IMG/VR virus record: IMGVR_UViG_2526164662_000035
Span: 1 to 19,618 of that record
Length of the DNA: 19,618 nt
Direction: 5' to 3' (one strand)
Source of the DNA: a virus
Lineage: Duplodnaviria; Heunggongvirae; Uroviricota; Caudoviricetes
The position numbers and the translations under genes are program-made. The notes below the pieces were generated by a model. It saw nothing but the letters and a program-made list of their open reading frames with translations. It did no database searches and was not told the origin of the DNA. Below are positions 1-16,884 of this stretch, one piece after another. Each line of letters starts with the position of its first letter. Position 1 is the first letter of the stretch.

Positions 1-852
1 AAGAATCCGTTTGGTGATATCAAATCGGATGGCACGGTGAAAACGGCTCTCGAAAACCTTGATTTAACGGACCTGGGTATCGGTAAAAATATCTCTGGTT
101 CTAACATTAACTTGCTTTCGAGCGCAACAAGTTCTGGTTTTTATGCATACGGCGGTAATACAGACCCGGATTTTGGGATTGATTACGGAATGGTGCTAAC
201 GTTGTTGTATGATTCCGTATCAAAACAACGAGTGCAGATTTATCTTCCGCTAGCAAATTCTGCTGGAGCAACACCAATCATTCGTGCTGTAACCGGCAAC
301 ACTACGATTTGGAAGTATAAGCTCTTTTCTGAAAAATATAAGCCAACGCCAGCAGATGTGGGGATGGGGTCTGGTGCGCCAGCTATCGGTGTCCCATTCT
401 TCTGGCCCTCCGCAGCAATGCCGAATACGGTCATAAGCGAATGGTCTGACATGGTGTTTTTAAAATTTAACGGCGCGTCATTTTCTGCTGCGGTATACCC
501 CAAACTTGCACAGGTGTTCCCTGGACTTACACTTCCCGAAGCTCGAGGCGAATTCCCGCGTATCTGGGATGATGGTCGTGGGGTCGATTCAGGAAGGGCA
601 TTGCTGAGTACTCAGGTGGATGCCATCCGAAATATCACTGGTGAAGTCGGTATTGTTCAATATTTTGGGAATACTACAAATTCTGGTGCGCTTTATTCTG
701 GGGGGGCACAAAACTTAACGAACCTCCAGCCAGGCGGAAGCACTGTTGCTCAAAGTATTCTCTTCAGCGCTGGAAAAGACCCATCGGTATCAATTGCAAA
801 CGAGAACCGACCGCGCAACATCGCATTCAATTTCCTGGTGAGGGCAAAGTAA
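1..852 (+). CDS. Phage (side) tail fiber protein, C-terminal part; 5' end lies outside the window
   Basis: Frame 1 is open from nt 1 to TAA at 850-852. The C-terminal region (FFWPSAAMPNTVISEWSDMVFLKFNGASFSAAVYPKLAQVFPGLTLPEARGEFPRIWDDGRGVDSGRALLSTQVDAIRNITGE) has the hallmarks of the phage tail-collar domain. Its stop overlaps the start of the downstream tfa-like gene (TAATG). Confidence 0.85.
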   Translation, partial: KNPFGDIKSDGTVKTALENLDLTDLGIGKNISGSNINLLSSATSSGFYAYGGNTDPDFGIDYGMVLTLLYDSVSKQRVQIYLPLANSAGATPIIRAVTGNTTIWKYKLFSEKYKPTPADVGMGSGAPAIGVPFFWPSAAMPNTVISEWSDMVFLKFNGASFSAAVYPKLAQVFPGLTLPEARGEFPRIWDDGRGVDSGRALLSTQVDAIRNITGEVGIVQYFGNTTNSGALYSGGAQNLTNLQPGGSTVAQSILFSAGKDPSVSIANENRPRNIAFNFLVRAK

Positions 853-1187
853 TGAAACCTGTCTTTGATGAAAATGGTCTGGCAACGCAGGCCGGTGATA
901 TTCGTTGTTTTTATTACGATGCAGTGACCATGGAATATGCTGGCTGGTCAGATGAATATATTAACGCTGGCGTCAGCATGCCGGGTAATTCAACAGATGT
1001 TGATCCAGGTGAAATGGTTGATGGAAAGGTTTTTATGTTCACGGGCATCGGATGGCGACAGGATGAAGATCATCGTGGTGAAACGGTATATTCAACCGAT
1101 GATACCTCATCTTCCACTATAGATTATATCGGCCCAGTCAGGAAGGGGTACACAACTGTTGCGCCATCAGGACCATATCAAAAGTAG
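852..1187 (+). CDS. tfa: Tail fiber assembly protein (Tfa), N-terminal 111 aa, ending at an in-frame TAG
   Basis: ATG at 852 overlaps the tail fiber stop. The product ends ...EDHRGETVYS...SGPYQK, matching the conserved mid-region of lambda-type Tfa chaperones (...EDHRGKTVY...GEYQKW...). At 111 aa it is about 80 aa shorter than typical Tfa proteins. Confidence 0.8.
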   Translation: MKPVFDENGLATQAGDIRCFYYDAVTMEYAGWSDEYINAGVSMPGNSTDVDPGEMVDGKVFMFTGIGWRQDEDHRGETVYSTDDTSSSTIDYIGPVRKGYTTVAPSGPYQK

Positions 1188-1442
1188 GGACGGCAAAAAG
1201 TAGGGTAACGAGATACTGACACACAGCACGTTGCCGATGTTGAAGCCGCTGAACAGAAGAAGGCTGCGTTACTGGCTGAAGCGCAGGATAAAATAAGTCT
1301 CTGGCAGACAGAATTGCGACTGGACATCATCAGTGATGGGGATAAGGAAAGTCTGATTGCGTGGGTGCAGTACATAAAAGCCATTCAGGCTATAGATACT
1401 TCATCTGCGCCAAATATCAACTGGCCCACCGAACCAGAATAG
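1188..1442 (+). pseudogene. tfa: Tfa C-terminal conserved domain, in the same frame as the N-terminal part but cut off by TAG (1185-1187) and TAA (1206-1208)
   Basis: Same frame as 852-1187. Codons 1209-1439 translate to RDTDTQHVADVEAAEQKKAALLAEAQDKISLWQTELRLDIISDGDKESLIAWVQYIKAIQAIDTSSAPNINWPTEPE, the typical Tfa C-terminus (...LLAEA...W..Y...L..VDTS.AP.I.WP). No start codon of its own. The two stops sit in an imperfect 14-15 bp tandem repeat (caaaagtaggga / caaaaagtagggta). Confidence 0.65.
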
Positions 1443-1589
1443 GAACGTTTGGGGAAGAGTTAGATTAAGGGATGAACTAATTGATGATTAATGCTTTTAA
1501 TTACAAAAGTGTAACTGGAGGTGTATTATTATAAAATAAAAAACGAAGCGTGAGAAGGGGCAAAATAGACAATGGCAGCGCTTTTTATT

Positions 1590-1618
1590 TGTGCTTTGAG
1601 TGTTTAACTCAAAGCACA
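1590..1618. terminator. Perfect 12-bp stem hairpin (TGTGCTTTGAGT-gttta-ACTCAAAGCACA) in the intergenic region, possible bidirectional terminator
   Basis: Perfect inverted repeat read directly. T-rich on the upstream + side (gcgctttttattt) and moderately T-rich downstream. Lies between the tfa remnant and the 3' end of the minus-strand acyltransferase. Confidence 0.35.
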
Positions 1619-1871
1619 TGTTCTAAATTATTTACTTTCGTATTTAAGGGGGTTAGGTTATGACCATTTGGTCAAACAAAACGTTTTAAAAATTCTGCGA
1701 TGGGTTTTTCTATGTACATATGAATGACGCTGCCAGGCGCACAAACTTATTATAAAGTATATTCCAATATATAGGAATACATTGGAATAATCAATAAGTC
1801 CGAAAGACACAAACATATATGATACCCAAGCTGTAATCAAACCATGCGTCAAATATATACTATATGAAGCA

Positions 1872-2764
1872 TCACCGACGGAAAATAATAAGTTTAGCCG
1901 GTTTTATTTTACCTTCAAGGCTCAACGCTGCCCAGACACCATAAAAAGCGAAAAACCCCCATATCAAAGGACGATGCCATTCCCCCCCCATGTTTGTTGT
2001 AATATTAAAGTATTCACATAATAAGAATGTGGGAATAAACAAAGTTAATATTGTAAGCGCAATTGTTTTTTTTAACATAGCGCCCAGTAAGTATAATCGA
2101 TACATAAACATACCCATAGCAAATACGACCATTTCTGGTCTTGCCAGTGTTTTCATGAACGGAAGAATTTCGAATATGATGCTGTTATTTTGATAAGTTA
2201 AAATATTAGCTACTATGGATATAGTTAAAAATAAGATCTCTATATACTCTAACCTTGATAATTTGATAGCAATAAAAAATGCAAAAGAAGTATAAAACAA
2301 AAATTCAAGTTGTAATGTCCAACCTATACTTAGAATTGCATCGCGATGCCAGTGAGTGAATGTAATACTCTCAAGATACCATTGAAGACTGATTTTTGTT
2401 TCGGGCCACCAATAAGCAATAGGTGGAGTTGGGGAAGATATATAATGTTTTACTATGAAGGCTGATAGAACGCAAAGGGCGGTAATTAAAGCATATACCG
2501 GGATTATTCTTATTACTCTTCGCATAAAAAAGTTCCCTGCAGATATTTTGAATTCTCCTTCTGATTGAGAGCCACCATATGCTACGTAAGGTATAATAAA
2601 CCACTAATTATGAAAAATATAATAACGCCAAATCCTCCCAGAGATGCAAGGATTTCGATATTCCCAATGCCATATTGTCCAAGTTCGGCATGTGCCAAAA
2701 CCACCATAGCTGCAGCAATAAACCTTAGTGCTTGTATATTGAAAAGCGTTTTTCTTTTATTCAT
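1872..2764 (-). pseudogene. Acyltransferase family 3 (OafA/Oac-like, O-antigen acetyltransferase type) membrane protein, frameshifted near 2525-2585
   Basis: ORF 2582-2764 starts MNKRKTLFNIQALRFIAAAMVVLAHA...FFIISGLLYLT (typical acyltransferase-3 N-terminus). ORF 1872-2525 in another frame carries the signature RRVIRIIPVY and is strongly hydrophobic. My translation shows the second frame is open upstream to a stop at 2604-2606, so the break is a single frame shift around 2580-2590. The hydrophobic ORF 1658-1852 may be a further degraded 3' piece. The region is markedly AT-rich compared with the flanking tail genes. Confidence 0.7.
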
Positions 2765-2880
2765 TTATATACTGACCCAATTTTGTAATTATGAAACTTT
2801 AATTGATAAGGTAAGCATACTAAATAACTGATAAAAATAATAGATCAATTGAAGGGAACACAATCAGGGTTGTGCCATCT

Positions 2881-3176
2881 GCTAAACTCCAAATATTAAA
2901 AATCACTAATACCAGAGCACTAATGGGGCTCTCCATGATGTACTGGGGACAATTGGACAAAATGGAAAGGGAAATGATTGTTGAGCGAACGCAGGCGGGA
3001 TTAGCTGAGCACTCACTGGAGGTTGGATAGGTAGCCGTAGGCCAAACCTAACAGATGAACAATGGGCGCAGGCCGGGCGATTAATTGCATCAGGCGTTCC
3101 TCGCCAGAAGGTGGCGATCATCTATGATGTTGGTATATCGACACTGTATAAGAAGTTTCCGGTCGGAGATAAATGA
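2881..3176 (+). pseudogene. DNA invertase (Gin/Pin/Hin/Cin family serine recombinase), C-terminal remnant with a -1 frameshift and no catalytic N-terminal domain
   Basis: Frame 1 (2923-3030) reads MGLSMMYWGQLDKMEREMIVERTQAGLAEHSLEVG*. Frame 0 (3021-3176) reads GWIGSRRPNLTDEQWAQAGRLIASGVPRQKVAIIYDVGISTLYKKFPVGDK*, nearly the same as the Gin/Pin C-terminal HTH region (GRIGGRRPKLTPEQWAQAGRLIAAGTPRQKVAIIYDVGVSTLYKRFPAGDK, recalled from memory). The N-terminal ~120 aa with the catalytic serine is absent. Confidence 0.8.
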
Positions 3177-3236
3177 AACCGTAGCACGTCGTATGCAAGA
3201 AGATCGTGCTGCGGTTTATGCTTATCACTTAAAGAC

Positions 3237-4106
<870 letters not shown>

Positions 4107-4190
4107 CTAACCCTTTGAATTTACATAGCGCAAAAAGATACCTTTCCTCATAATGTGAGCTAATTTTATGTTTCGTTTGATGATCGGGTC

Positions 4191-4251
4191 GGTCTCGAAA
4201 ACCGGAGTAGGGGCAACTCTACTGGGGGTTCAAATCCCCCTCTCTCCGCCA
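4191..4251 (+). other. 3' fragment (61 nt) of tRNA-Ser(CGA), serU-like; att remnant, probably the prophage attR
   Basis: ggtctcgaaaaccggagtaggggcaactctactgggggttcaaatccccctctctccgcca: anticodon loop CUCGAAA, long variable arm, T-loop GTTCAAATC, acceptor 3' strand plus CCA. The 5' acceptor strand and D-arm are not present upstream, so this is not an intact tRNA gene. Confidence 0.8.
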
Positions 4252-4826
4252 CTTTATCAATGACTTATCTCCCGACTTCCCGCCTTGCTTTTCCTAAACA
4301 GAACAATCGTAGAATATTCTTGAAGGGTTAGATCGTCACTGTTTTCTGTTCGATACTGTGACATTCAGCACTTGATTCGCTATGGATCTGACAGGAAGGT
4401 TTCGAGCGAAAATCTGCAGTTATTCAGTCGTTTTCTTATCGGTCACCATTATTCTTTTAGACATTGATCCTACAAAGCTGCCGCAAAGTTGGTGGTGGGA
4501 ACTGAAGTTGCGTAGAGAAGGGGTCAATACCCGGAGGCACACATGGGCTGGCAAAAGTGTAGCGGTATTAGGCGCAGCTATTTAGCCTAGTTATGTTTTA
4601 TGAAAACTTGATATCATATAAGTGTCTTACTTATTGGCTGTAAATAAGTTTTTCCTAAGGAATTGTTTCTTGAGTATCATTTGTAACTGTAACGGAATTT
4701 ATAATCCTTTGCTTTATTGTTACGGTATTTTTTATCACACCCTATTTTTTATGTGGTTTTTTATACTGAAGTTTGGCAAAGTGAACTTTATATGCATATA
4801 CTTCATCCTGGTTTCAGTTAAATTGG

Positions 4827-5579
4827 GTGGATGATATGGCAACTACATGTTCAGTTATATTGATTTTGGAGTCCTTTGATATTTATTTCGGAAAAGAGAG
4901 TGTGTTTCTGGAGAGAGGTTCATCTGTACTTGTCGACTCTAGCTCTAGAGATTTTTTCCTGACATATCCTGAAAGAGTGATAGTGGCGGATTTTGGCGCT
5001 GAGTTTATTAGTCGCTATTTGAAAGCTAATAACTTAAGGGATATTTCTGATTGTAGGGAATATCCATCTTATTTAAAAATAAACTTTGCTGACTTCAGTT
5101 TAATTAAAGGATTAATTAGTTGGGCTAATCACTGTGCTGAATACATAGAAATTTTTGATGAGTCTATTGCTTTTACATGTCTCTCTGCATTTTCTTCTGA
5201 AAAACAATTTGGAGTATTTCTGTTTGGATGTTTGAAAAGCACAGGGGCTAAAGTTAAAACGATTATTCATACGGATTTATCTGCACCATGGCGTCTTAAG
5301 GATATATCATCAAGATTATATCTCAGCGAAAGTTTACTAAAGAGGAAATTGAAAGAAGAGGGGATATCATTCAGTAAGATCATACTTGATGAGAGGATGC
5401 AAATGGCTGAATATTTACTCAGCACTCGTTGTTATCCTATTAGTAAAGTAGCTAAGGTCTGTGGTTATGCCAGTGTCTCATACTTTACTTATGTATTTAG
5501 ACGTTATTTTGGTGTTTCTCCAAGTCAATACTCTCAGAGGAGTTCAGAAAGTAAAATTCTTACTCACCAGGGAATCTGA
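4827..5579 (+). CDS. AraC/XylS-family transcriptional regulator (AppY/GadX/Rns-like; low GC)
   Basis: C-terminal double-HTH signature: ...LSAPWRLKDISSRLYLSESLLKRKLKEEGISFSKIILDERMQMAEYLLSTRCYPISKVAKVCGYASVSYFTYVFRRYFGVSPSQYSQR. About 250 aa, like AppY-type regulators. The ATG at 4836 has better spacing to GGTGG and may be the true start. Confidence 0.85.
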   Translation: MDDMATTCSVILILESFDIYFGKESVFLERGSSVLVDSSSRDFFLTYPERVIVADFGAEFISRYLKANNLRDISDCREYPSYLKINFADFSLIKGLISWANHCAEYIEIFDESIAFTCLSAFSSEKQFGVFLFGCLKSTGAKVKTIIHTDLSAPWRLKDISSRLYLSESLLKRKLKEEGISFSKIILDERMQMAEYLLSTRCYPISKVAKVCGYASVSYFTYVFRRYFGVSPSQYSQRSSESKILTHQGI

Positions 5580-5584
5580 TCATT

Positions 5585-5850
5585 GTTCTTGCCCCCTTAT
5601 TTCCAGACAGGGGGTGTATCTTAAGTTAACGTTACCCGCTGACGTCGATATTCTCGCGGAGAGCGATAACCCAACGCACTGTGCGGATGGTTTTCATTGT
5701 AATGTTCGATCGCCACTGCAAGATTATGCAATGCCGTTCTTACATTCGGTTTCGGCATGAACGCGATGTAGTCTTCCTTCATCGTTTTCACGAATCTTTC
5801 TGCCATTCCATTACTCTGAGGACTGCTGATTACCCATGAGGAGTACAATT
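5585..5850 (-). mobile_element. Truncated IS2-like (IS3 family) element: 3' end of the orfB transposase plus the terminal inverted repeat
   Basis: Minus-strand ORF 5621-5848 translates to ...[63 protein letters not shown], the C-terminus of IS2 OrfB. Beyond its stop the minus strand reads ...CTGTCTGGAAATAAGGGGGCAAG, matching the IS2 terminal repeat (TGTCTGGAAATATAGGGGCAAATCCA, from memory). Only ~265 bp of the IS is present, abutting the AraC gene stop. Confidence 0.8.
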
Positions 5851-6068
5851 AAACGGGTTAATCAGTTTCTCCATTTGAAAGAAAAAAGACTTCTGTACTG
5901 TTTGATATCACCGCTATTTTCTTATTTTCTGTGCAGGTCGTAGTGGGACAAAACTGAGACACATAAGGCCTCACAATGGCTTGCAAGGCTTTACATGTTT
6001 TGATGTGGTGGGACGTGTGAGCGCAGTGTTGATGGGGTAATACTTTGAATTAGAAGCGGATTCTTATG

Positions 6069-6114
6069 ATTCGTAATGCGAAGGTCGTAGGTTCGACTCC
6101 TATTATCGGCACCA
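6069..6114 (+). other. 3' fragment (46 nt) of tRNA-Thr (thrW-like); att site
   Basis: attcgtaatgcgaaggtcgtaggttcgactcctattatcggcacca matches the 3' 46 nt of E. coli thrW including CCA. The 5' half of the tRNA is not present upstream. A 46-bp thrW core is what I recall for P22-type attachment sites. Confidence 0.85.
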
Positions 6115-6721
6115 TCAAGAAAATCAATAACTTAGCTTAACTTCTCTAAGAAATTGTATCTTCTGTTATCACTTACAAACGCCTATACGTTGTTATGGGC
6201 TTTGGTAGTGTAACACGTATGGGCGAGTAGTTCCCAGGCTCAACCTCGTAACAAGTTCCTTTGAAGCTGGAAGACGTGCCACCGTCTCTAAACCTTCTAC
6301 CAAAACTCTTAGCAAGATGTTCCACACCTGGCGCGGTGTCCAATGATGCTACACGTCGAGATGACGTCGCAGAGGATAAACAGGCTAAATGATGGGAAGA
6401 GTTTTAAGTGCAATAGTGGATTAAAGCCCACCTCTTCAAAACCTAACTTGATCGGGAAAGAATCAAGCTCTAGCACGGTTTCGTCCACCGGAGTACAACG
6501 GGTGCCTGATAAGAGAAGAACTGCTAAGACTTCATAGCTTTTGTGAAAAAGCCCTTTTTAGTGGATATGCCTACGGCGCTTATTTTTTGGTATAACCATC
6601 AAAGGCGCTTTATGGCTCCTATTGTCTTGAAAATGTATCTTTACTTGTATTGTGTTTTATGCGTAGTCTCCCTGTGTAGTATGTAACTTGTTAATTTTCA
6701 TATGAATACAGAGGCAACACG

Positions 6722-6874
6722 ATGAAAAACATTGCAGCTATAAAACGTAATAACCGCAAGATTCACGCTCGTAAGTTCCTGTCTACGCCAGAGGGAAAAG
6801 CCTGGCTAGAGCGTAAACAGCGAGAGAACGAAGAAAGAAAACTCCTTAGTGAGTTGAAATGGCTTAAGGATTGA
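6722..6874 (+). CDS. Small basic protein (50 aa), hypothetical
   Basis: ATG with AGAGG 9 nt upstream. Product MKNIAAIKRNNRKIHARKFLSTPEGKAWLERKQRENEERKLLSELKWLKD. Followed by a long hairpin at 6884-6927. Below the 60-aa cutoff of the supplied ORF track. Confidence 0.35.
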   Translation: MKNIAAIKRNNRKIHARKFLSTPEGKAWLERKQRENEERKLLSELKWLKD

Positions 6875-6883
6875 ATCACCAGT

Positions 6884-6927
6884 AGGCGCATAACACATCC
6901 AGCAATCAAAGATGTGTTTGTGCGCCT
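6884..6927 (+). terminator. Long imperfect hairpin (AGGCGCATAACACATC ... GATGTGTTTGTGCGCCT) after the small ORF; possible terminator or RNA structure
   Basis: Stem of ~16 bp with an 11-nt loop read directly. The T-run (agttttttag) is ~20 nt downstream, so it is not a canonical intrinsic terminator. Confidence 0.3.
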
Positions 6928-7424
6928 GATAGTGAAATTATTAAAGTTTTTTAGTTAATGTAGCCATTGCATGAACGATGATCGCTAGTGAATCGATTTT
7001 ATCTCGAGGGGTAAAATAGATGAGGTATATGATGGTAACAATTACAGCTAAAGTAATTGTGGTTCTGCAGGTTTTTAAAATGGATAAGATAAAGCGCATA
7101 GATACCCCCTATTGATTTAACAACAACAAGGTATCATTTATTTTTTATTGCATGCAATGTGCAAATTTTCACATATAATAGCTTACTATTCACTTTGCAT
7201 GGTGTCAACAAGATGATGTGTTGTTTTGTTTGATTTGTTCAAGATAATATTTCATTTTCTCATCTATATAACTTGTGTTTTAGATAATTTCACTAATTGT
7301 AAAAGTTACGTATTGCTTAATAGCTGCCTTTTTATCTGAAATCGGCGCAAACGTGATCAATGTTTAACGCGAAGATCAGCGGCGTCAGGTCCACGCAGCG
7401 ACAATTCTCAAATATCAGGAGGCA

Positions 7425-7982
7425 TTACGCTTCCTGCTCTTTCTTGATACGTTGCACCGTCTGTGTGCTGACACTGAAATCTTTTGCTACGCTCCGAATT
7501 GATCCACCATTCGCGAGAGCGGCAACAATTCCCGCTCGATCAATTGCTTTTCCATTACCACGTTTTGCTATACGTCCAGCGGCCTTAGCTGCGGCAATCC
7601 CCTCACGTTGCCGCTCAAGCATCATTTCACGTTCCATTTGTGCCACTGCTGCAAGCACTGTGAGCATCATATTCCCTGCGGGAGAGTTCTTCCCTGTCTT
7701 AAAGTCTTCTTTATGGAAATGCACAGACACGCCGCGCTCTGTTAATTGCTCAACCGTTGCCAGTAGGTCGGCTGTATTACGGCAAAGTCGATCAATGCTG
7801 TGAACATGCAAAACATCACCTTCACGCACATAGTTCATCATTGCCTCAAACTGTGGGCGCTGGGTATTCTTGCCTGACGCTTTATCTTCAAAGACTTTAT
7901 CAAGAGTTACTCCAGCTAATTGACGGTCTGTGTTTTGTTGGACAGTCGATACCCTAATGTATCCAATATTAGCCATTTTCAT
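7425..7982 (-). CDS. Small serine recombinase (resolvase/invertase family, 185 aa)
   Basis: N-terminal catalytic motif GYIRVSTVQQNTDRQ with the conserved Ser, a central ...DRLCRNTADLL... segment, and a C-terminal HTH (GGSIRSVAKDFSVSTQTVQRIKK). Length and layout match gamma-delta/Tn3 TnpR-type resolvases. GGAA lies upstream of the ATG. Confidence 0.9.
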   Translation of the reverse strand: MKMANIGYIRVSTVQQNTDRQLAGVTLDKVFEDKASGKNTQRPQFEAMMNYVREGDVLHVHSIDRLCRNTADLLATVEQLTERGVSVHFHKEDFKTGKNSPAGNMMLTVLAAVAQMEREMMLERQREGIAAAKAAGRIAKRGNGKAIDRAGIVAALANGGSIRSVAKDFSVSTQTVQRIKKEQEA

Positions 7983-7990
7983 TTTCCTTC

Positions 7991-8107
7991 TGTGTTGATT
8001 TGTGTGTAGTGATTATTGATCGTGTTGATTAGGTGTGTAAATGACTTTTTTCACTACGAAATTCGAAGGTTTTTAGTGTGGTGATTTAGCCTGCTTTATC
8101 ACTACAC
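7991..8107. promoter_or_regulatory. Cluster of GTGT(A/G/T)G(T)GATT motifs in both orientations just upstream of the serine recombinase; candidate res/operator site
   Basis: TGTGTTGATT (7991-8000), GTGTAGTGATT (8004-8014), GTGTTGATT (8022-8030), GTGTGGTGATT (8077-8087), and inverted ATCACTACAC (8098-8107) and TCACTAC (8051-8057). Multi-subsite res sites sit immediately upstream of resolvase genes in Tn3-family systems. Confidence 0.4.
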
Positions 8108-8504
8108 GTCTTGCATGAGAATCATGTAGTTATGCTTTGGTAAAATTAGCAAGCTATTAAATAGCGTGTTTATTTTGAAAAAATTAATTTTTTCAACACG
8201 TGAAAGGAACTTGTTCGACAAATAATAGATTGATTTTTAATCAACAATTTCTGATAGTGCTCTGTAAGCCACATTACACAAGGCGCAGCGAAAGTGATGT
8301 AAAAGTGAAGAAAGCTAACATTGCACTTTTAAGCTACTTTTCATTGAATTTTTAGTATGGAATTACATAGGGATTAATCATCAATTAATCTTGAATTTAA
8401 GCCTGTTTTAGATGTTTAATTTTTGATAGCAAGAAACACTTTTAGAAGATCATTGCACAGATGTTATGTGATAAATGGATGTAACGGTAGGTCACTGTGA
8501 ACTA

Positions 8505-8640
8505 CCCCCCACAGAATTCTGTTATCCTTAACTTTTAAAGAAATATGCACCCTAACAGAAAACTGTTACCCCAACCCTAACAGAATTATGTTAGACACCC
8601 CCACAGAAAACTGTTAGCCACCCCTACAGAATTTTGTTAC
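8505..8640 (+). repeat. Array of five phased iterons, each a palindrome CCC-(T)AACAG-N4-CTGTTA, spaced ~23 bp (first one 44 bp upstream)
   Basis: Copies centred on ACAGAATTCTGT (8511-8522), TAACAGAAAACTGTTA (8553-8568), TAACAGAATTATGTTA (8578-8593), CACAGAAAACTGTTA (8602-8616), TACAGAATTTTGTTA (8625-8639). ACAG start positions 8511, 8555, 8580, 8603, 8626. Each is preceded by a short C-run. An AT-rich tract follows at ~8641-8720. Confidence 0.8.
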
Positions 8641-9135
8641 CTATTAGATCAACTATCAAACTACAATTAAATTATCTTTTATAAATTCTTTTATCTTTAA
8701 AGAATAATTATAGGGATACCCGTTAGGGGAGTCTTCGACTATCCCTTAATCTATTGGCATTCGCCAGAACCTTGCACAAGTTAGAGTGTTAGTCGTTAGA
8801 CTGCTTGTCATAACACATAGTTTTTTGTTTGTTGATGTTAGTTAGTAGATCTATGTTCGCTAATGCCGCTCACAACGAATATGTAATCTACTATGTGCAA
8901 ATAGCCTACGGCTTGCGTAAGGCTAAATAGTCTTGCGCTGTGCGCAGAACGATAATTAACTAACTACCATCTAACGATCATCAATCTATTTAAGAGAAAA
9001 TCTATTGTGCAATACTCTGACGAGTGCAATAACCTTGTGTGCTACGCGTTAGCGATGTTAGCACATAGACACAGACAACAACCAACAACAAACAAAAAGA
9101 ATGGTTTTAGTAGTTGAAGGTTAAATAAGATTCTA

Positions 9136-9365
9136 CCGCTTAAATCAAGCCGTAGGCGAGCTAAACGTATATAAGGTAGGGAAACACTTAGCGGTAATAG
9201 ATTAGCTCGTTATAGAGTTTCTGAGAGCTTTGCAGGTATTTTATAAGATGTCTGAAATTAGATTTTATCTATCATCATCTTCCCATATACCTAACAAATA
9301 CAAAATAACCCCCTTAAATAAGCCTCTGGCGAGCTAAACAGCCATTACATAAGGGAATGTATTGT
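9136..9365 (+). repeat. Two copies of a ~45-bp imperfect direct repeat (CTTAAAT-AAGCC-N3-GGCGAGCTAAAC...ATAAGG..GGGAA) about 173 bp apart
   Basis: 9136-9187 cgcttaaatcaagccgtaggcgagctaaacgtatataaggtagggaaa versus 9309-9365 cccttaaataagcctctggcgagctaaacagccattacataagggaatg. A tandem GCGTTTTAGA x2 follows at ~9388-9407. Confidence 0.6.
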
Positions 9366-9500
9366 TTTTATCAAAACCTCGTTAGAACGCGTTTTAGAGC
9401 GTTTTAGACAATAATAAAGAATAGCACTACACATGAGAGCACGAATTGCTAAGAAATATCATAACTTACTGAAAATGATCAATATTTATATGGATAGGGG

Positions 9501-9529
9501 TTGACAAAAGCTTTTAGTCGTGGTAAAGT
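9501..9529 (+). promoter_or_regulatory. Sigma70-like promoter candidate (TTGACA-17 bp-TAAAGT) upstream of the early small-gene cluster
   Basis: TTGACA at 9501-9506, 17-nt spacer, TAAAGT at 9524-9529. The first gene of the cluster starts at 9650 with a strong AGGAGG ribosome-binding site. Confidence 0.3.
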
Positions 9530-9649
9530 AATATTAGGGACAGAAAACATTCTTATCCTCTAAGTAATTAAACCAATGCACCGCACTTTGAAGCCCAAGG
9601 CTTGCAAGGTGTCTTTTTCTTTTAACCAAATAGAATAGGAGGTTAATTA

Positions 9650-9850
9650 ATGAAGTATTACACTCCACAGGATGTAATCGAAGCCTGGAAACGTGGTGAG
9701 ATCAATCGTTTTAAAGTAAGGATGAACAGGAACACAGCGCGACGCTGTGGTTATCCAGAGCGTGAAAAATGCTTTGACGATGCACTAAAAATTATTGATG
9801 AATTAAGAAAAAATGAAAAAGGATCTGAAAAAGAATCTGAAACAGAGTAA
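9650..9850 (+). CDS. Hypothetical small protein (66 aa)
   Basis: Strong ribosome-binding site (aggaggttaattaATG). Charged product MKYYTPQDVIEAWKRGEINRFKVRMNRNTARRCGYPEREKCFDDALKIIDELRKNEKGSEKESETE. First gene after the 1.7-kb noncoding region. Confidence 0.5.
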   Translation: MKYYTPQDVIEAWKRGEINRFKVRMNRNTARRCGYPEREKCFDDALKIIDELRKNEKGSEKESETE

Positions 9851-9869
9851 AGAAGAGAAGGAGAAAACT

Positions 9870-10040
9870 ATGAGCGAAACTACAGAAAAGAAAAGACAAC
9901 CACGCACTTGCTTTCATATTCCTGATGAAGTATTTCAGGTGTTGTTTAAAGAAGCCAGAAGTAAACGTATCACTGTTACAGATTACATTCTTGATATGTT
10001 GAAAAGAGAGGCTGAAACACTCTCAAACAAAAGCAAGTGA
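9870..10040 (+). CDS. Putative ribbon-helix-helix (Arc/CopG-like) DNA-binding protein (56 aa)
   Basis: ATG at 9870 preceded by GGAGAA. Product MSETTEKKRQPRTCFHIPDEVFQVLFKEARSKRITVTDYILDMLKREAETLSNKSK shows a beta-strand/helix/helix pattern (RTCFHIP / DEVFQVLFKEA / VTDYILDMLKRE) typical of RHH regulators. The ORF-track start at 9813 overlaps the upstream gene and is less likely. Confidence 0.45.
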   Translation: MSETTEKKRQPRTCFHIPDEVFQVLFKEARSKRITVTDYILDMLKREAETLSNKSK

Positions 10041-10093
10041 TTTTTATCACCATAGTAGCGCCGTAGAGCGTGATTACATCAAGGAGATTTTTA

Positions 10094-10663
10094 ATGATTA
10101 ATGAAGAACAATTTGTAAAAGTTCCTATGTGGATTCTAAAAATAAGCCAAGTAAACGGGCATAAATTTACAGATAGTGCTAAAAACCTTTACTGCTATTT
10201 GAGAGGGTTTGATCGTGCATTTCCCTCTTACGCTAAGATAGGCGATGTTTTTGGCATAACACCAAGAGCAGCAGAAGAAAGGGTTAAGAAATTGCTCGAA
10301 ATGGGATTAATTATAAAAGATGCACGACCAGGAAGCTCTAACCTTTATCGAGTGCTTGATATTCCAAAAGGAGAATCATCACTACCTGATCCTTCTGAGA
10401 AAGAAGACGAATCTAATGAAATATTGAATGTTTCCGAAATCATCGTTGAAGAAGAAACACAGGAATCAGAGTTCCCTGAGCGGCCCGAAATTTTTACTTG
10501 GCTTCTTTCCCTTGATAAGAAGAAACCACCGCACGAAGAAACAGAAGATTTTGTAAAACGTGCATTAGATTCAAAGAATATCTATCTTGAGAAACAGGCT
10601 TTTCACGATCTGATAATATCTCTAAGAGAAAAAAGTGAAATATACGATTCAATACCATTCTAA
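10094..10663 (+). CDS. Winged-helix DNA-binding protein with an acidic C-terminal region; candidate replication initiator or iteron-binding protein
   Basis: ATG at 10094 with AAGGAG 7 nt upstream. N-terminal region MINEEQFVKVPMWILKISQVNGHKFTDSAKNLYCYLRGFDRAFPSYAKIGDVFGITPRAAEERVKKLLEMGLIIKD resembles the winged-helix N-terminal domain of phage/plasmid replication initiators. Function is inferred. Confidence 0.45.
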   Translation: MINEEQFVKVPMWILKISQVNGHKFTDSAKNLYCYLRGFDRAFPSYAKIGDVFGITPRAAEERVKKLLEMGLIIKDARPGSSNLYRVLDIPKGESSLPDPSEKEDESNEILNVSEIIVEEETQESEFPERPEIFTWLLSLDKKKPPHEETEDFVKRALDSKNIYLEKQAFHDLIISLREKSEIYDSIPF

Positions 10664-10672
10664 GGAGAATAA

Positions 10673-10942
10673 ATGACTTATAACATCACTATAGGAAACA
10701 AAACTATTGAAATAACTGAAAGCGGATACAACATTTTAAAAGCTATTTTGGACATAGAGTTCTCACCCCCGACAGTGGTTAGCTTTTGTAGTTTAGGCGG
10801 CTACAGCGCACAACATGTGAATCATTGGTTAAACCATTTTACATCGTTCGGTGTGCTGGATTATGAAGGGATTAACCACACTACATTTCGTCTTTTGAAA
10901 TTAAACAAAGATTTTGAATTGTTTATCACAAACAATCAATAA
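10673..10942 (+). CDS. Hypothetical protein (89 aa)
   Basis: ATG preceded by AGGAG (taaggagaataaATG). 10 nt after the upstream gene, consistent with an operon. Confidence 0.5.
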   Translation: MTYNITIGNKTIEITESGYNILKAILDIEFSPPTVVSFCSLGGYSAQHVNHWLNHFTSFGVLDYEGINHTTFRLLKLNKDFELFITNNQ

Positions 10943-11038
10943 CAACAGATCGGGCAATACATATGGCAAATGCATTTATGGCGATATTCATCGTAACAAT
11001 GGTATCAAGTTTTTATAATCCACATAAAAAGAGAGAAA

Positions 11039-11422
11039 ATGGGAAGAAAGAAAAAGAACAACTTAAAACGTATTGAAAAAAACAGTAACTTCAATTCAAC
11101 AAGACAACGTCCACCGACACACACCAATAACGAAATTCCAGGGGAAGAGATAATATTTATTCTTGAAACAGAATCCCCTGAAATAAGCGATGAAGAACAA
11201 GAAATAATCAAATCAATGCCAGGCGTTTACTTTCGCCCAAGAACAAGAAAACAAACAATAATTTCTGATGGCACTCTGAAACGTTGGCAGCTTTTAGGGT
11301 TTAGCTCCTATCATCATTTTTTGGGATTTAACGCTTTCAATAATTGTGTAGGTGGTGCATCGGAAGTCGATCTGATGGCTCATTTAGAAGCTACATTAGC
11401 TTCTAACAAACGCTCTAACTAA
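11039..11422 (+). CDS. Hypothetical protein (127 aa), basic N-terminus and acidic middle
   Basis: ORF with N-terminal MGRKKKNNLKRIEK and a central acidic stretch ETESPEISDEEQEI. No recognisable catalytic motif. Confidence 0.45.
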   Translation: MGRKKKNNLKRIEKNSNFNSTRQRPPTHTNNEIPGEEIIFILETESPEISDEEQEIIKSMPGVYFRPRTRKQTIISDGTLKRWQLLGFSSYHHFLGFNAFNNCVGGASEVDLMAHLEATLASNKRSN

Positions 11423-11437
11423 TAAAAGGATGGTCGT

Positions 11438-11683
11438 ATGTATAAGCGCCCAATGAAAATATTCGAAAAAGGAAAAATAATGATTGGCTATATTCAAGAA
11501 ACACAATTATTTCAGATGATCCTGTCTGATGCAAAAAACTATGCTGAGTTAATCCGACTGGCAAAAGAAACAGAAGACTACGAAGCATTAGAGCGTTATC
11601 GTGATGAAGTGCTGACGCTCAAGACACCTTTTAACATCGTATTGAATATGATTAATGATGCATTACAAGGAGAAGCCGCATAA
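11438..11683 (+). CDS. Hypothetical small protein (81 aa)
   Basis: ATG preceded by AAGGATGG. Stop overlaps the start of the next ORF (TAATGG), suggesting translational coupling. Confidence 0.45.
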   Translation: MYKRPMKIFEKGKIMIGYIQETQLFQMILSDAKNYAELIRLAKETEDYEALERYRDEVLTLKTPFNIVLNMINDALQGEAA

Positions 11684-11991
11684 TGGAAGAAGATATTAGC
11701 AATGCAATGGAACAACTTTTAGATCTGACTATCTCACTACAAACAAGAATAAATCAAGCCTATTCAGATTTATGCGATTACACGCTCTCTCAATGCGTTA
11801 TTAGCTTAATGAAGGTGAATGTAAGCCTTGACGATTTTATCTCTCTGGTGAGCGATTTAGAGCTAATTGAGGACGATGCCAAGATGTGCACTCAAACCAT
11901 CACAGACACCGCCAGCACGTTAAAGGCTGCAAGTGAAGAGATTCAGCAATTAGTAGATGATTTAGCAAAAAGTGCTATTCCCTCTAAATGA
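11683..11991 (+). CDS. Hypothetical acidic helical protein (102 aa)
   Basis: Start overlaps the upstream stop. Last gene before the second ORF-free region. Confidence 0.45.
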   Translation: MEEDISNAMEQLLDLTISLQTRINQAYSDLCDYTLSQCVISLMKVNVSLDDFISLVSDLELIEDDAKMCTQTITDTASTLKAASEEIQQLVDDLAKSAIPSK

Positions 11992-12734
11992 TAATGAAAA
12001 TCATTTGCATTTATATAATAAAAATGTTATATTTGTATTAAGGGTAGATAAAAAGGTTTTGACTGGTGTTAATCCTTCTACTGTCATAAATCCCTGCATA
12101 TGGAAGGTGATAGCCTCAAGGGTTGAGTGGCATTAACCTCTAACAAATATTACCTTCCATCTCTCAAGAAGTTTTAGAATAATCATAACTCCCTCTTTGA
12201 TTGTTGATTGTTTCTACGTTGTGTTGATGAATGTTGTTAGGCATTGTGCTTAATTTTGATAAAAGCGGGTAGGTGTTATCTCCTTGCCCTTCCCGCTCTT
12301 ATTTTTCATCTATGCTTATCCTAAAGCTCCTTATTTTGTCCGAAAACATTAAAGAGCCTTACACTGATAGTTATATTTTATAACTATTTACTAACATCAT
12401 TAAACTCTTATTTAATGACAGAAGTTAGTAACAGAATAATCTATTAAGTTGTTGTCAAAAAACTATCATCTGCATAGCGTTAGCCGCAAGCAGAGAGAGT
12501 TTAGCTAAGAATTGTGCAATAACCTTTGGAAATATTGATAGCAAAACGGGTTTTATAGACTGCAAATCTATAATCTTTGGTTGTAAAAACGCTTTTTCTG
12601 AAACGGTAGATTATTGTTGGTGTAGTTAATCCCTATTAAAATTTAATCTGTGAGTAGATTGGAATAGTGATTCCTTAAAATCTGACTGGTGCATCCACAC
12701 CATGAAAGATAGCGGTTAGCCACCGCACCCGAAT

Positions 12735-12790
12735 AGATATTCCTGATTGATTCCGCATGTTTTCCTAAGAGCATGTTTTCAGGAATATCT
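12735..12790. repeat. Perfect 12-bp inverted repeat AGATATTCCTGA ... TCAGGAATATCT around a 32-bp spacer containing GCATGTTTTC twice
   Basis: Read directly: 12735-12746 and 12779-12790 are exact reverse complements. The spacer holds the direct repeat GCATGTTTTC x2. Confidence 0.7.
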
Positions 12791-12897
12791 GTTCACCCTT
12801 TAAACCTATCTTTAAGCATGTTTAATAAGCATTCTTAGAGATACGTTTAAAACCTCCTCAAGGTTTTACTTATCGCTGTGTATTGCCCGACACGTTA

Positions 12898-12950
12898 ATA
12901 AATCCCCCTCGCTATTCTCAGATTGAACCTCTTATAGCCTGGGGGATTTA
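12898..12950. repeat. Perfect 10-bp inverted repeat TAAATCCCCC ... GGGGGATTTA around a 33-bp spacer, just upstream of the structural cluster
   Basis: 12898-12907 and 12941-12950 are exact reverse complements. Lies ~30 bp upstream of the ORF starting at 12983. Confidence 0.6.
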
Positions 12951-12982
12951 TTAAATTCCAACATAATGGAATCGTTATATAA

Positions 12983-13192
12983 ATGAAACAAGAAATTATC
13001 CTGAAATATGGCAATGAAAAGTTAACACTAACTGAAGATGTGTTGAATGCTACAGCCTACGCGCTTGGTATCACTCCCACAGAATTAAAGAAACAGTGTG
13101 AACGTCTTTATAAGGCTGAAAGCAATAAACCATCTCACCAAGATTTGATTAATGCTAAAGCTCAACAAATCAAACAATCTAAGGAAAAATAA
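12983..13192 (+). CDS. Hypothetical small protein (69 aa), first gene of the structural-type cluster
   Basis: ORF whose stop overlaps the next start (TAATGG). Confidence 0.45.
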   Translation: MKQEIILKYGNEKLTLTEDVLNATAYALGITPTELKKQCERLYKAESNKPSHQDLINAKAQQIKQSKEK

Positions 13193-13566
13193 TGGCTATT
13201 TTAAAATTAAGCGATGTTTTCCTACATCGTAAAAGCATCACTGACGTAGTGAGCTATGCAACCGACCCTTACGCGGCTGTAGAAAGCAAAAAATTTGCAG
13301 CACTTGCACAAGATGTAACGTGCGGCGACCTCATTGATTCATCCGGCGCTAAATATGTTAGCGGCGCTGATGTTCTTGTCGTTGTGTCTGACTTCGTAAC
13401 TGCTGATTCAAATAAAACAGTTAACGTGCTTCGTGCTAATGCCGGACTCGTTTGCATCAAAGCTGATGCCCTGAATGCCGAAGGCGCTGTAAAAGAAGCT
13501 GCTATTGCAGCTCTCGCTGCTAAAGGCTTCCAGCTTGAAGGCTTCCACTCTGTTTTCACATCTTAA
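13192..13566 (+). CDS. Possible head decoration or scaffold protein (124 aa), positioned like lambda gpD
   Basis: AAGGAA ribosome-binding site. Ala/Val/Gly-rich product immediately upstream of the gpE-like capsid gene. The gpD analogy rests on position and size only; sequence similarity is weak. Confidence 0.4.
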   Translation: MAILKLSDVFLHRKSITDVVSYATDPYAAVESKKFAALAQDVTCGDLIDSSGAKYVSGADVLVVVSDFVTADSNKTVNVLRANAGLVCIKADALNAEGAVKEAAIAALAAKGFQLEGFHSVFTS

Positions 13567-13582
13567 GAAGGAATAAATAATA

Positions 13583-14611
13583 ATGATTATCGGAAATGAA
13601 GTGGTTGATCTTGCTCCACTGTTCGAATTAAACGACTCACGCAATTACCTACTGTCTACTCTGGATTTTACTGATCCTGTGCCTGTAGAAAGTCACAAAG
13701 TGGCTGTTTCCCAGCTTATCGAGAGCAATGAATCTCTGTTCAACCATCCTACAAGCCGTTTTAGCTCTGAGCATAACGTTACTAAGCGTGAGAACGGGGA
13801 AGAATATCTTATTGAAATCCCGTACTTTTTAAGGGAAGACCTGATCAAACCGCAGGACGTGCAAGGCAAACGCAAAGCCGGAAGCTCTATTGAAGAAACA
13901 CTGCCGGATCTGTATGCGGAATATATCGCTAAACACAATGTTGCATTCCAGCGCACTAAAGAAAGCATCCTCGCGGCTTCTCTGTTCTCTGGCAAGACAC
14001 ACACCCCGAAAACTGACGATGTTCTGATCGATTACAGCACTCTGTTCGGTGTGTCTCCAATGACTGCAACCGTTGACGCATCCAGCACCAACACAATGAC
14101 CGTATTCAAGCAATTTGATCAGATGCATACGGATATGATTGCTAAGGCACAAAGCCAGGCTGCAACCATTGAGCGTGTTGTTGTGTTCTGTAAACCTGCG
14201 GCATTCAACGCTATTCGTTACAGCGTTGGCATGGTTAATGCGTTCCAGTATGCAAGCCCTGTAGACGATGCAAACGTGGTGTTTAATGTGCGTTCTCTGC
14301 TGCCTGGTGTAACTACTTTCACCATTCCAGGAACTAACATTGACCTGATCAAAGTGACTGATCCGCTGCTGCTGGCACATATGACCGCTGACGCTGTAGC
14401 TATTCCTAAACTTGCTAAGGGGGCAGGTGTTTACCAAGCTATTTTTGGTGCGCCTTCCAGTTCATTCGATCTGCTGTCTCAAGGCGCTAAAGAGTATTAC
14501 AGCTATGCTTTCGAATCGAATCGCGGCGACGCAGTGCACGTAGTGACCGAGAATAGCTCGCTTGTGGTTAACCACGGTGTTGGCTTCTCTGTGCAGATCA
14601 CAGTAGCGTAA
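13583..14611 (+). CDS. Putative major capsid protein, lambda gpE family (342 aa)
   Basis: GAAGGA ribosome-binding site. Length matches lambda gpE (341 aa). Local matches to gpE as I recall it: HKVAVSQLIE vs EKVYLSQIPG near the N-terminus, and C-terminal GFSVQITVA vs EFVSVQLA. Needs profile confirmation. Confidence 0.55.
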   Translation: MIIGNEVVDLAPLFELNDSRNYLLSTLDFTDPVPVESHKVAVSQLIESNESLFNHPTSRFSSEHNVTKRENGEEYLIEIPYFLREDLIKPQDVQGKRKAGSSIEETLPDLYAEYIAKHNVAFQRTKESILAASLFSGKTHTPKTDDVLIDYSTLFGVSPMTATVDASSTNTMTVFKQFDQMHTDMIAKAQSQAATIERVVVFCKPAAFNAIRYSVGMVNAFQYASPVDDANVVFNVRSLLPGVTTFTIPGTNIDLIKVTDPLLLAHMTADAVAIPKLAKGAGVYQAIFGAPSSSFDLLSQGAKEYYSYAFESNRGDAVHVVTENSSLVVNHGVGFSVQITVA

Positions 14612-14763
14612 AAAGTGTTAAAGACGTTCCCCTACGTCTGGAAATAATCGGGGCAATAAGGGTAAGGGATAATCATATAAGCAAAATATGCGCTGTCTCT
14701 TGCCCTTTTTGTTTTTCTACTGTCTACAAACCTAAATAAAAATATATATGTGAGAGAAAACCA

Positions 14764-14961
14764 ATGAACACAGAAAATTCACAGGCATTAATTCTTAAAT
14801 CTGTAAAAGAACTGGCAGCTATTAGCGATGACTCAATAATCAATGTCAGTGCCTTATGCAGAATGCTTTCAATTGATGCAAATAATGTGCGTCAGCGTGT
14901 CTTTCAGACTGGATGTAGCACTTTCGAAGCAATCCAATATTATTGCTCTAAAAAACAATAA
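14764..14961 (+). CDS. Hypothetical small protein (65 aa)
   Basis: ORF between the capsid-like gene and the 613-aa gene. Weak ribosome-binding site. Confidence 0.35.
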   Translation: MNTENSQALILKSVKELAAISDDSIINVSALCRMLSIDANNVRQRVFQTGCSTFEAIQYYCSKKQ

Positions 14962-14995
14962 CAAATAACAATCATAATACAGGGAAACAATTAAC

Positions 14996-16837: not shown

Positions 16838-16884
16838 TCATCACTGTGGGGCGGTTTAGCCCCCTTAAATAAGGATTACAAATT

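Follow-up and report, generated by a model that had tools for sequence, protein, structure and literature searches.

Two elements in tandem at the thrW locus of Escherichia coli and a probable scar of serU in the cargo of one of them

The locus described here raises the question of how remnants of two different transfer RNA (tRNA) genes came to lie within 2 kb of each other, with a third repeat 13 kb away, in DNA that has no intact tRNA gene. The stretch, referred to as the window, is the whole of the 19,618 nucleotides (nt) analysed (positions 1 to 19,618 of the IMG/VR virus record IMGVR_UViG_2526164662_000035, Caudoviricetes). A first-pass annotation, made from the sequence alone, described a tRNA-Ser fragment, a tRNA-Thr fragment and a short tRNA-Thr repeat beside an integrase gene, and took the locus for a composite hotspot built by successive integrations and deletions. 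Our analysis keeps the successive integrations, in the form of two tandem elements, but needs no deletions. The reading as a whole, which we consider likely, is that an SfV/e14-like prophage and a second element of 12,967 bp (the 13-kb element) stand in tandem at thrW, and that the prophage carries with it a captured, fossil right attachment site (attR) of serU. When the window was searched with ARAGORN the count of tRNA genes was 0, which agrees with the earlier statement that no intact tRNA is present.

Two elements at the thrW locus

Sequence comparison assigns the window to the E. coli thrW locus, with the order proA-thrW ... yagP'-paoD. In all related genomes the left side is proA-thrW and the right side is yagP'-paoD. 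The attachment (att) sites and boundaries are:

5943-6068 (+): P arm of an attP (phage attachment site) of the SfI/SfII/SfIV/SfV type, 126 nt, 94-98% identical to the attP arms of those phages
6069-6114 (+): 3' fragment of thrW, 46 nt, 46/46 identical to thrW nt 31-76; att core of the P22/SfV type
6096-6115 (+): 20-nt core of the 13-kb element, left (attL) copy; exact repeat of 19063-19082
6115-19062 (no strand): integrative, satellite-like element of 12,967 bp (start-to-start spacing of the two cores); alone beside intact thrW in strain CAU16175, 99.9% identical
19063-19082 (+): 20-nt repeat of the thrW 3' end, attR of the 13-kb element; 19 nt are thrW nt 58-76, plus 1; same junction in CAU16175 and strain 401651
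19208-19618 (-): C-terminal part of yagP, LysR family (Pfam LysR_substrate); native chromosomal flank of the hotspot, yagP'-paoD being next in all related loci

The 46-nt fragment had been placed correctly at 6069-6114. Its sequence, ATTCGTAATGCGAAGGTCGTAGGTTCGACTCCTATTATCGGCACCA, is letter for letter the published 46-bp core (PMC3636060); the att core of SfI is common to SfII, SfV, SfX and P22 (PMC3636060). Window positions 5943-6134 were 94-98% identical to the attP regions of SfI, SfII, SfIV and SfV. Since both core and P arm match an SfV-type attP, positions 1-6068 are taken as the end of an SfV/e14-like lambdoid myovirus prophage, which appears to be of the Sp1/CP-933H type. The 46-nt copy then reads as the attR of this prophage, and also contains the attL of the 13-kb element: the element's own tyrosine integrase would recombine only the last 20 nt of thrW, and for this reason the 3' end of the 46-nt copy (6096-6115) can serve as attL. 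The distal thrW copy was earlier given as 19 nt (19063-19081). Its 19 nt do correspond to thrW, but the exact repeat of 6096-6115 extends to 20 nt and ends at 19082.

The same boundaries were found in both occupied and empty states among natural strains. In CAU16175, which is 99.9% identical to window positions 6069-19618, the order is proA, intact thrW, the 13-kb segment, truncated yagP (LysR) and paoD; here the 13-kb element stands by itself, with intact thrW on one side and the same 20-nt repeat at its other end. In DS26-1 the prophage stands by itself, and its 46-nt copy runs straight into yagP'-paoD. Window positions 1-5834 were contiguous in, and 99.3% identical to, the prophage right ends of strains C3 and C7. 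Both elements are present in the window and in 401651, whose junction between prophage end and 13-kb element is identical to that of the window. A prophage together with a P4-like element occupies thrW in Sakai (Sp1/Sp2), H10407 and 120899.

The thrW hotspot holds two independent elements in tandem, and the middle att copy is common to both. Each element appears to own a separate pair of thrW copies. Three copies are expected in the source strain, namely the intact gene, which would lie outside the window, the middle copy that both elements use and the distal one of 20 nt. Excision of either element by itself would be possible, and both single-occupancy products do occur in natural strains. 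Scans for promoters and terminators around both att regions returned nothing beyond chance.

In enterotoxigenic E. coli H10407, a prophage of the same type starts with intact thrW, followed immediately by a minus-strand integrase, and ends with pin, GIY-YIG gene, AraC gene, insertion sequence (IS) stub and 46-nt copy as in the window. The integrase of the window prophage and its intact thrW should likewise lie at the prophage left end, outside the window. By analogy with H10407, DS26-1 and Sakai, where the same prophage has intact thrW at its extreme left, the gene would be tens of kb beyond the window. The first-pass annotation had held that an intact tRNA gene just outside the window, making the copies simple attL/attR pairs of one ordinary prophage, would speak against a composite locus. 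On this analogy half of that holds: an intact thrW is to be expected at the prophage left end, but with two att pairs, not one.

Tandem occupancy at thrW is a known situation (Sp1/Sp2), and the locus is an ordinary hotspot. Tandem occupancy recurs at other tRNA hotspots. At leuX of STEC2018-607 (locus record L016, 16417-17911), the 31-nt attR of a relative of the 13-kb element is followed by a second integrase gene.

The tRNA-Ser piece

The features on either side of the tRNA-Ser fragment, up to the prophage P arm, are:

3237-4061 (-): GIY-YIG protein (Pfam LEM-3_GIY-YIG; PADLOC PD-T4-3, E 1.4e-139)
4062-4189 (+): phage-side (P) arm of the putative fossil serU attR, 'type B'; sequence shared with the attR arm of the prophage at serU in strain MB15
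4190-4251 (+): 62-nt 3' part of serU, tRNA-Ser(CGA), 61/62 identical to K-12 serU nt 29-90; core of the putative fossil attR
4252-4529 (+): 278 bp of probably captured host serU-yodB intergenic DNA, aligned to K-12; B' side of the attR
4530-4584 (+): last ~55 nt (right inverted repeat) of an IS630-family remnant; novel joint with the serU flank at 4529/4530
4827-5579 (+): AraC-family regulator (Pfam HTH_AraC), ~98.6% nt identity to Sakai Sp1 ECs_0287
5600-5848 (-): C-terminal stub of an IS3-family (IS2-like) transposase (Pfam rve_3 at 5621-5848), ~74% nt identity to IS2

The fragment itself is real, with 61 of its 62 nt matching serU; its extent is 4190-4251, one nucleotide more than the 61 nt (4191-4251) first given. 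What had gone unremarked is that it continues into 278 bp (4252-4529) of native serU-downstream DNA. Positions 4190-4529 matched the native serU locus in 5423 of the 5426 complete E. coli genomes, with ~96-99% identity. This native serU lies between yodB and mtfA, elsewhere on the chromosome. At a relaxed threshold, Rfam gave sub-threshold matches on the Ser fragment alone (tRNA-Sec, and a plastid 3'UTR model that is really a tRNA T-arm), and no RNA family elsewhere.

When the DNA after the Ser core was aligned to the MB15 prophage ends, it scored 521/556 against the host flank (B') and only 20 against the phage P' arm. Since a host B' flank and not a phage P' arm comes after the core, the fragment is read as an attR and not as an attP. 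The order found, an MB15 arm, the 61/62 core and then host B' DNA, is that of a hybrid attR as in a lambda bio-like capture. It might be thought that the fragment is a live attP, or a second attP letting the prophage target serU as well as thrW, given that the 62-nt core is complete and that the phage-side arm is identical to that of the serU-resident prophage. The host flank on the far side of the core, where a P' arm would be required, makes this very improbable, and no serU-type integrase was found nearby in the window or in its thrW relatives.

The donor state of such a capture exists. A chimeric query that joined the GIY-YIG end, the Ser piece, its flank and the K-12 continuation into yodB was found contiguous in three strains, MB15, BS15R-A and RMDEC332, and in these the same prophage stands at serU itself. 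The MB15 prophage is complete and syntenic with that of H10407 at thrW; intact serU flanks it on one side and yodB on the other. Its left end has cargo genes, a minus-strand integrase and xis, and its right end has pin, the GIY-YIG gene and a partial serU copy.

The Ser piece is also found as phage cargo. Three isolated lambdoid phages, ev099, mEp332 and PhiR70_1, have positions 4189-5831 with ~99% identity; as cargo of these viable phages the block lies between the tail-fibre assembly gene (tfa) and attP/int, the position of the lambda b region. The part common with these free phages stops at 5831, within the IS3-family stub. The block was further found in prophages beside argW/intS (C3) and at att-lambda next to ybhB-bioA (BR1220), and altogether in 517 of the 5426 genomes. 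thrW loci without the prophage, such as that of CAU16175, are also without the block.

The first-pass annotation had regarded the Ser remnant as a record of integration and deletion at this very place. Two different tRNA fragments within 2 kb, with IS stubs between them, would indeed be expected if elements had integrated here into both tRNA-Ser and tRNA-Thr genes and later deletions had left three remnants. But the remnant reads as an attR with the host flank of a distant gene, bringing 278 bp of that locus along, and both isolated phages and prophages at three further att sites contain it. The whole block sits inside free phages and at argW and att-lambda prophage ends, and is lacking from prophage-free thrW loci. 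Local integration is already contradicted by these observations, and we give it almost no credence.

The best reading of the Ser piece is that it is a lambda-bio-like capture scar from serU and not a trace of local integration. An ancestor of the prophage, resident at serU, would have excised by illegitimate recombination, as lambda bio phages do. Such an excision would retain a complete attR, made up of the phage arm, the 62-nt core from serU and, from the host, 278 bp of serU-yodB DNA. The lineage would later have acquired other int/att modules, those of thrW, argW and att-lambda, and the scar would now be non-essential cargo between the tail-fibre genes and attP. The lambda bio and gal transducing phages are alike in having a hybrid att with contiguous host DNA and a novel joint to phage DNA, in being viable, and in the use of a non-essential b region. 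Unlike them, the window has just 278 bp of captured non-coding host DNA, the event would be old and its product fixed in a large population of phages (517 genomes), and the lineage has since swapped its integration modules, so that the scar now stands at foreign att sites. A literature search on the serU scar returned nothing relevant.

Several points weigh against this account of the locus. The mechanism of capture is deduced from its product alone, and the joint sits inside the IS630-family remnant. Two serU-type phage arms adjoin the same block of Ser piece, flank and patE (the AraC-family gene), type A matching an O111 lambdoid serU prophage and type B matching MB15. That one block has two arm types calls for a later exchange of arms, homologous or site-specific, within the 341-bp segment, or else for a more complicated, IS-assisted history. 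No record in the complete-genome collection spans at least 80% of the window, and the intact thrW and the SfV-type integrase are placed to its left from relatives because the source genome is absent from the collection. Finally, patE has IS remnants on either side, so that assembly by insertion sequences is conceivable.

On this last alternative, the Ser piece with its flank, the IS630-family remnant, patE and the IS3-family stub were assembled on a chromosome, through composite transposition or a rearrangement mediated by insertion sequences, and entered phages by homologous recombination and not by aberrant excision. The bracketing of patE by IS remnants, the joint within an IS630-family element and the two different phage arms beside one block would all suit it. 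We regard it as unlikely. The IS630 remnant is truncated internally and not at its terminus, which is not a signature of transposition, and the order of phage arm, core and host flank corresponds exactly to that of a real serU attR. Moreover, no chromosome with patE downstream of native serU was found in a search that was not exhaustive.

If the Ser piece is a capture scar, a tRNA fragment within an island need not mark local integration; here it would be the portable scar of a former home of the phage ancestor. About 10% of complete E. coli genomes hold a second partial copy of serU, which can mislead att-site callers, prophage-boundary predictors and assemblers. The Ser block is also a dated marker of module exchange among lambdoid phages, in that a single cargo block is combined with three int/att modules and two types of tail. 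The fossil attR may still be a usable recombination site, through which serU-type integrases or homologous recombination could exchange prophage ends from one locus to another.

In 401651 (L002 1-75 / L030), an ISAs1 transposase open reading frame (ORF) abuts the left edge of the Ser fragment at the record origin, with a type VI secretion system/Rhs cluster beyond. This junction may reflect a genuine rearrangement in which the prophage was lost, or else the assembly may have broken at the serU segment, which is repeated.

The 13-kb element

The features of the element, apart from the two cores already given, are:

7425-7982 (-): serine recombinase of the resolvase/invertase type (Pfam Resolvase, E 1e-38; PHROG DNA invertase)
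8507-8639 (+): five 18-bp iterons CCCnACAGAAnnnTGTTA, then an A+T-rich stretch; 5 matches against 0.12 expected by chance; putative replication origin
10070-10663 (+): candidate winged-helix, O-like replication initiator (PHROG replication initiation families, E 1e-8 to 1e-4; Pfam HTH_36)
13583-14611 (+): major capsid protein with the lambda-E fold (Pfam Phage_cap_E, E 6e-18)
14996-16837 (+): tape-measure-like protein (PHROG 16051, E 6e-31)
16885-17562 (+): Dit-like tail-tube initiator (Pfam Dit_like)
17643-19007 (-): tyrosine integrase with DUF6538, SAM-like and catalytic domains (Pfam); a 425-amino-acid (aa) version in CAU16175 per RefSeq
19011-19029 (+): degenerate thrW-like stretch, P arm of the att site of the element, ATTAGTAATGGTCGTAGGT; one mismatch and a 5-nt gap against thrW nt 31-54

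Repeats matching the thrW 3' end bound the element (6096-6115 = 19063-19082), and the integrase gene lies inside it, 56-143 nt from the 19063 core. As had been noted earlier, this gene adjoins the 19063 repeat and is transcribed into the element, in the sense opposite to the tRNA; it stands at the tRNA-distal end with its upstream region abutting attR. Among 1273 tRNA-integrase neighbours surveyed, the arrangements were mainly 'same orientation, tRNA first' and 'opposite, convergent' (PMC2951348). The 13-kb element falls outside these two classes because its integrase does not adjoin the intact tRNA gene, and to this extent the position is unusual, as had been claimed. It is not, however, a sign of rearrangement. 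The same arrangement was observed at leuX, with a 31-nt repeat and an integrase 65% identical, and at glyU, with a 22-nt repeat and an integrase 33% identical, and the relatives in Klebsiella and Serratia have the same order. Being constant across the family, the orientation of the integrase is taken as a feature of the family design.

A degenerate tRNA-like stretch had been placed at 19014-19062. The similarity to thrW is weakly supported and lies at 19011-19029, where its score was reached by 24 of 20,000 shuffles. Derivation of the att arm or the integrase from an SfV-type system was considered and rejected: the similarity of the arms is at chance level (1918 of 3000 shuffles reach the score), and the integrases have just one 67-aa stretch in common, 28% identical. 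In CAU16175 the reconstituted thrW at attL (L001 8028-8046) ends ...GGCAACA and not ...GGCACCA, the encoded 3' CCA being altered by element-derived sequence.

The iterons lie in an ORF-free stretch of 1.65 kb (7983-9650), which is ~90% conserved in family members, and the iteron region is probably a replication origin. A second ORF-free stretch of ~1 kb (12000-12983), just upstream of the capsid module, has a 21-nt inverted repeat (12895-12915 / 12934-12954, 90% complementary). An inversion switch driven by the serine recombinase was not borne out, as no inverted segments were seen among four family members, a small sample.

The structural genes resemble those of the virulent 148-kb phage phAPEC8, in which the homologs of the capsid, tape-measure and tube-initiator genes are syntenic. 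The capsid protein has 25% aa identity, over its full length, to the phAPEC8 major head protein (G377_gp114) and matches Phi92_gp124. The tape-measure-like protein has 27% aa identity to that of phAPEC8 (G377_gp104). The Dit-like protein has 53% aa identity to the phAPEC8 tail protein G377_gp103 and matches Phi92_gp135 (E 1e-53); within its gene, positions 17089-17465 have ~83% nt identity, over 377 nt, to a Phapecoctavirus tail gene. This last value suggests that a chromosomal element and a virulent phage exchanged the gene fairly recently.

When all ORFs of at least 50 aa were scanned against Pfam and PHROG, the only matches in the element were the resolvase, the O-like replication protein, the E-type capsid, the tape-measure-like and Dit-like proteins and the integrase; no portal, terminase, protease, sheath, tube or lysis gene was found. 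Small ORFs without assigned function are also present. A PADLOC scan of the proteins of the element gave no matches.

Some version of the element was found in ~760 of the 5426 E. coli genomes. These versions are strongly mosaic, yet their span is narrow (11.6-13.2 kb). Family members are sited at thrW, leuX and glyU, with three different int/att modules, and occur also in Klebsiella, Citrobacter, Enterobacter, Cronobacter and Serratia; capsid homologs of 39-98% identity were found across Enterobacterales chromosomes. No paper describing the element was found in the literature, and the family is apparently undescribed.

The element thus has an incomplete set of virion genes, its own integration and replication functions and a small, conserved size, as satellites in general do. 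It carries its own integrase with swappable thrW/leuX/glyU modules, an iteron origin with an initiator gene, and diverged copies of phage capsid, tape-measure and tube-initiator genes. Because of these we propose, tentatively, that it may belong to an undescribed Enterobacterales family of satellites or satellite-like defence islands parasitising virulent phi92/phAPEC8/rV5-like myoviruses. No markers of the known families were found in it: neither those of P4-like satellites (psu/sid/delta/alpha primase) nor those of phage-inducible chromosomal islands (PICIs; alpA, pri-rep, terS), nor those of capsid-forming PICIs (cf-PICIs; portal, protease, connectors, terS), nor the marker set of the phage-inducible chromosomal island-like elements (PLE) of Vibrio cholerae. 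With the PLE, cf-PICIs and P4 it has in common that it is small, conserved in size and tRNA-integrating, with its own integrase, initiator and iteron origin. As in the PLE/ICP1 pair, it carries a few virion-gene homologs of one large virulent phage group. Apart from the lack of P4-like, PICI, cf-PICI and PLE markers, it differs from the known satellites in combining a capsid with tape-measure-like and tube-initiator proteins.

A decayed prophage remnant and a purely defensive island are possible alternatives to the satellite proposal. For the first of these, the segment would be the residue of a prophage and the 20-nt repeat the mark of an old, now immobile insertion, a view that the lack of portal, terminase, protease, sheath, tube and lysis genes would favour. 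Size (about 11.6-13.2 kb) and gene order are, however, conserved in ~760 genomes despite heavy mosaicism, and the same architecture occurs with three int/att modules and in Klebsiella and Serratia. In the window the integrase, the replication gene and the iteron origin are intact. Decay is therefore an improbable explanation. An IMG/VR scan for free viral contigs of the size of the element returned only prophage predictions from isolate genomes, which are uninformative on packaging. The element, widespread and unannotated, could matter more than the Ser block, given its homologs of structural genes of virulent phi92/phAPEC8-like phages used in phage therapy.

The right end of the prophage

The remaining genes of the prophage end are:

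37-852 (+): C-terminal part of a tail fibre (PHROG tail fibre match); late-gene end of the SfV/e14-like prophage (1-1187)
852-1187 (+): tail-fibre assembly gene (PHROG tail-fibre assembly match)
1872-2764 (-): acyltransferase (Pfam Acyl_transf_3), two ORFs here

The order at the right end is tail fibre, tail-fibre assembly, split acyltransferase, PD-T4-3, Ser block and AraC gene. The two acyltransferase ORFs of the window are 217 and 60 aa, and the gene of strain C3 is intact (363 aa); the acyltransferase is probably a pseudogene in the window strain. In SfV-type phages, O-antigen modification genes lie at the position of this acyltransferase (PMC3636060). The GIY-YIG gene matches the anti-phage defence gene PD-T4-3 and would have been the last gene of the ancestral serU prophage.

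The earlier description of the DNA between the two tRNA fragments, an AraC-family regulator and an IS2 stub, stands for the first gene; the stub is of the IS3 family with only ~74% nt identity to IS2, and RefSeq names the same stub in strain Sakai ISEc48 partial. The AraC gene is probably the ortholog of PatE of CP-933H/Sp1, an activator of acid resistance. PatE is encoded on CP-933H (PMC3681947). The region upstream of the gene consists of the serU scar and the IS630 remnant. With PD-T4-3 and the likely acid-resistance regulator, the block is medically relevant cargo.

Sp1 and Sp2 (CP-933H and CP-933I) of O157:H7 occupy the same proA-thrW / yagP hotspot. Sp1 has the same right end, with pin, the GIY-YIG gene, the Ser remnant, the AraC gene (PatE) and the IS3 stub, and then the 46-nt thrW copy at which the second element starts. 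Unlike Sp1, a defective prophage of 10.6 kb, the window prophage appears to be of the full SfV-like type with an acyltransferase; and whereas Sp2 is P4-like, the second element of the window belongs to an unrelated 13-kb family with its integrase at the far end. With the attP-thrW of P22, SfI, SfII, SfV and SfX the window has in common the identical 46-nt core, a P arm 94-98% identical and cargo immediately upstream of attP. It differs from them in that PD-T4-3, the serU scar and the patE-like gene take the place of gtrABC as cargo, and in that the cognate integrase lies outside the window.

Just downstream of the GIY-YIG gene, positions 3154-3213 gave a sub-threshold Rfam match to the 3' hairpin of CssrB, a Shigella small RNA (24.5 bits, E 0.24).

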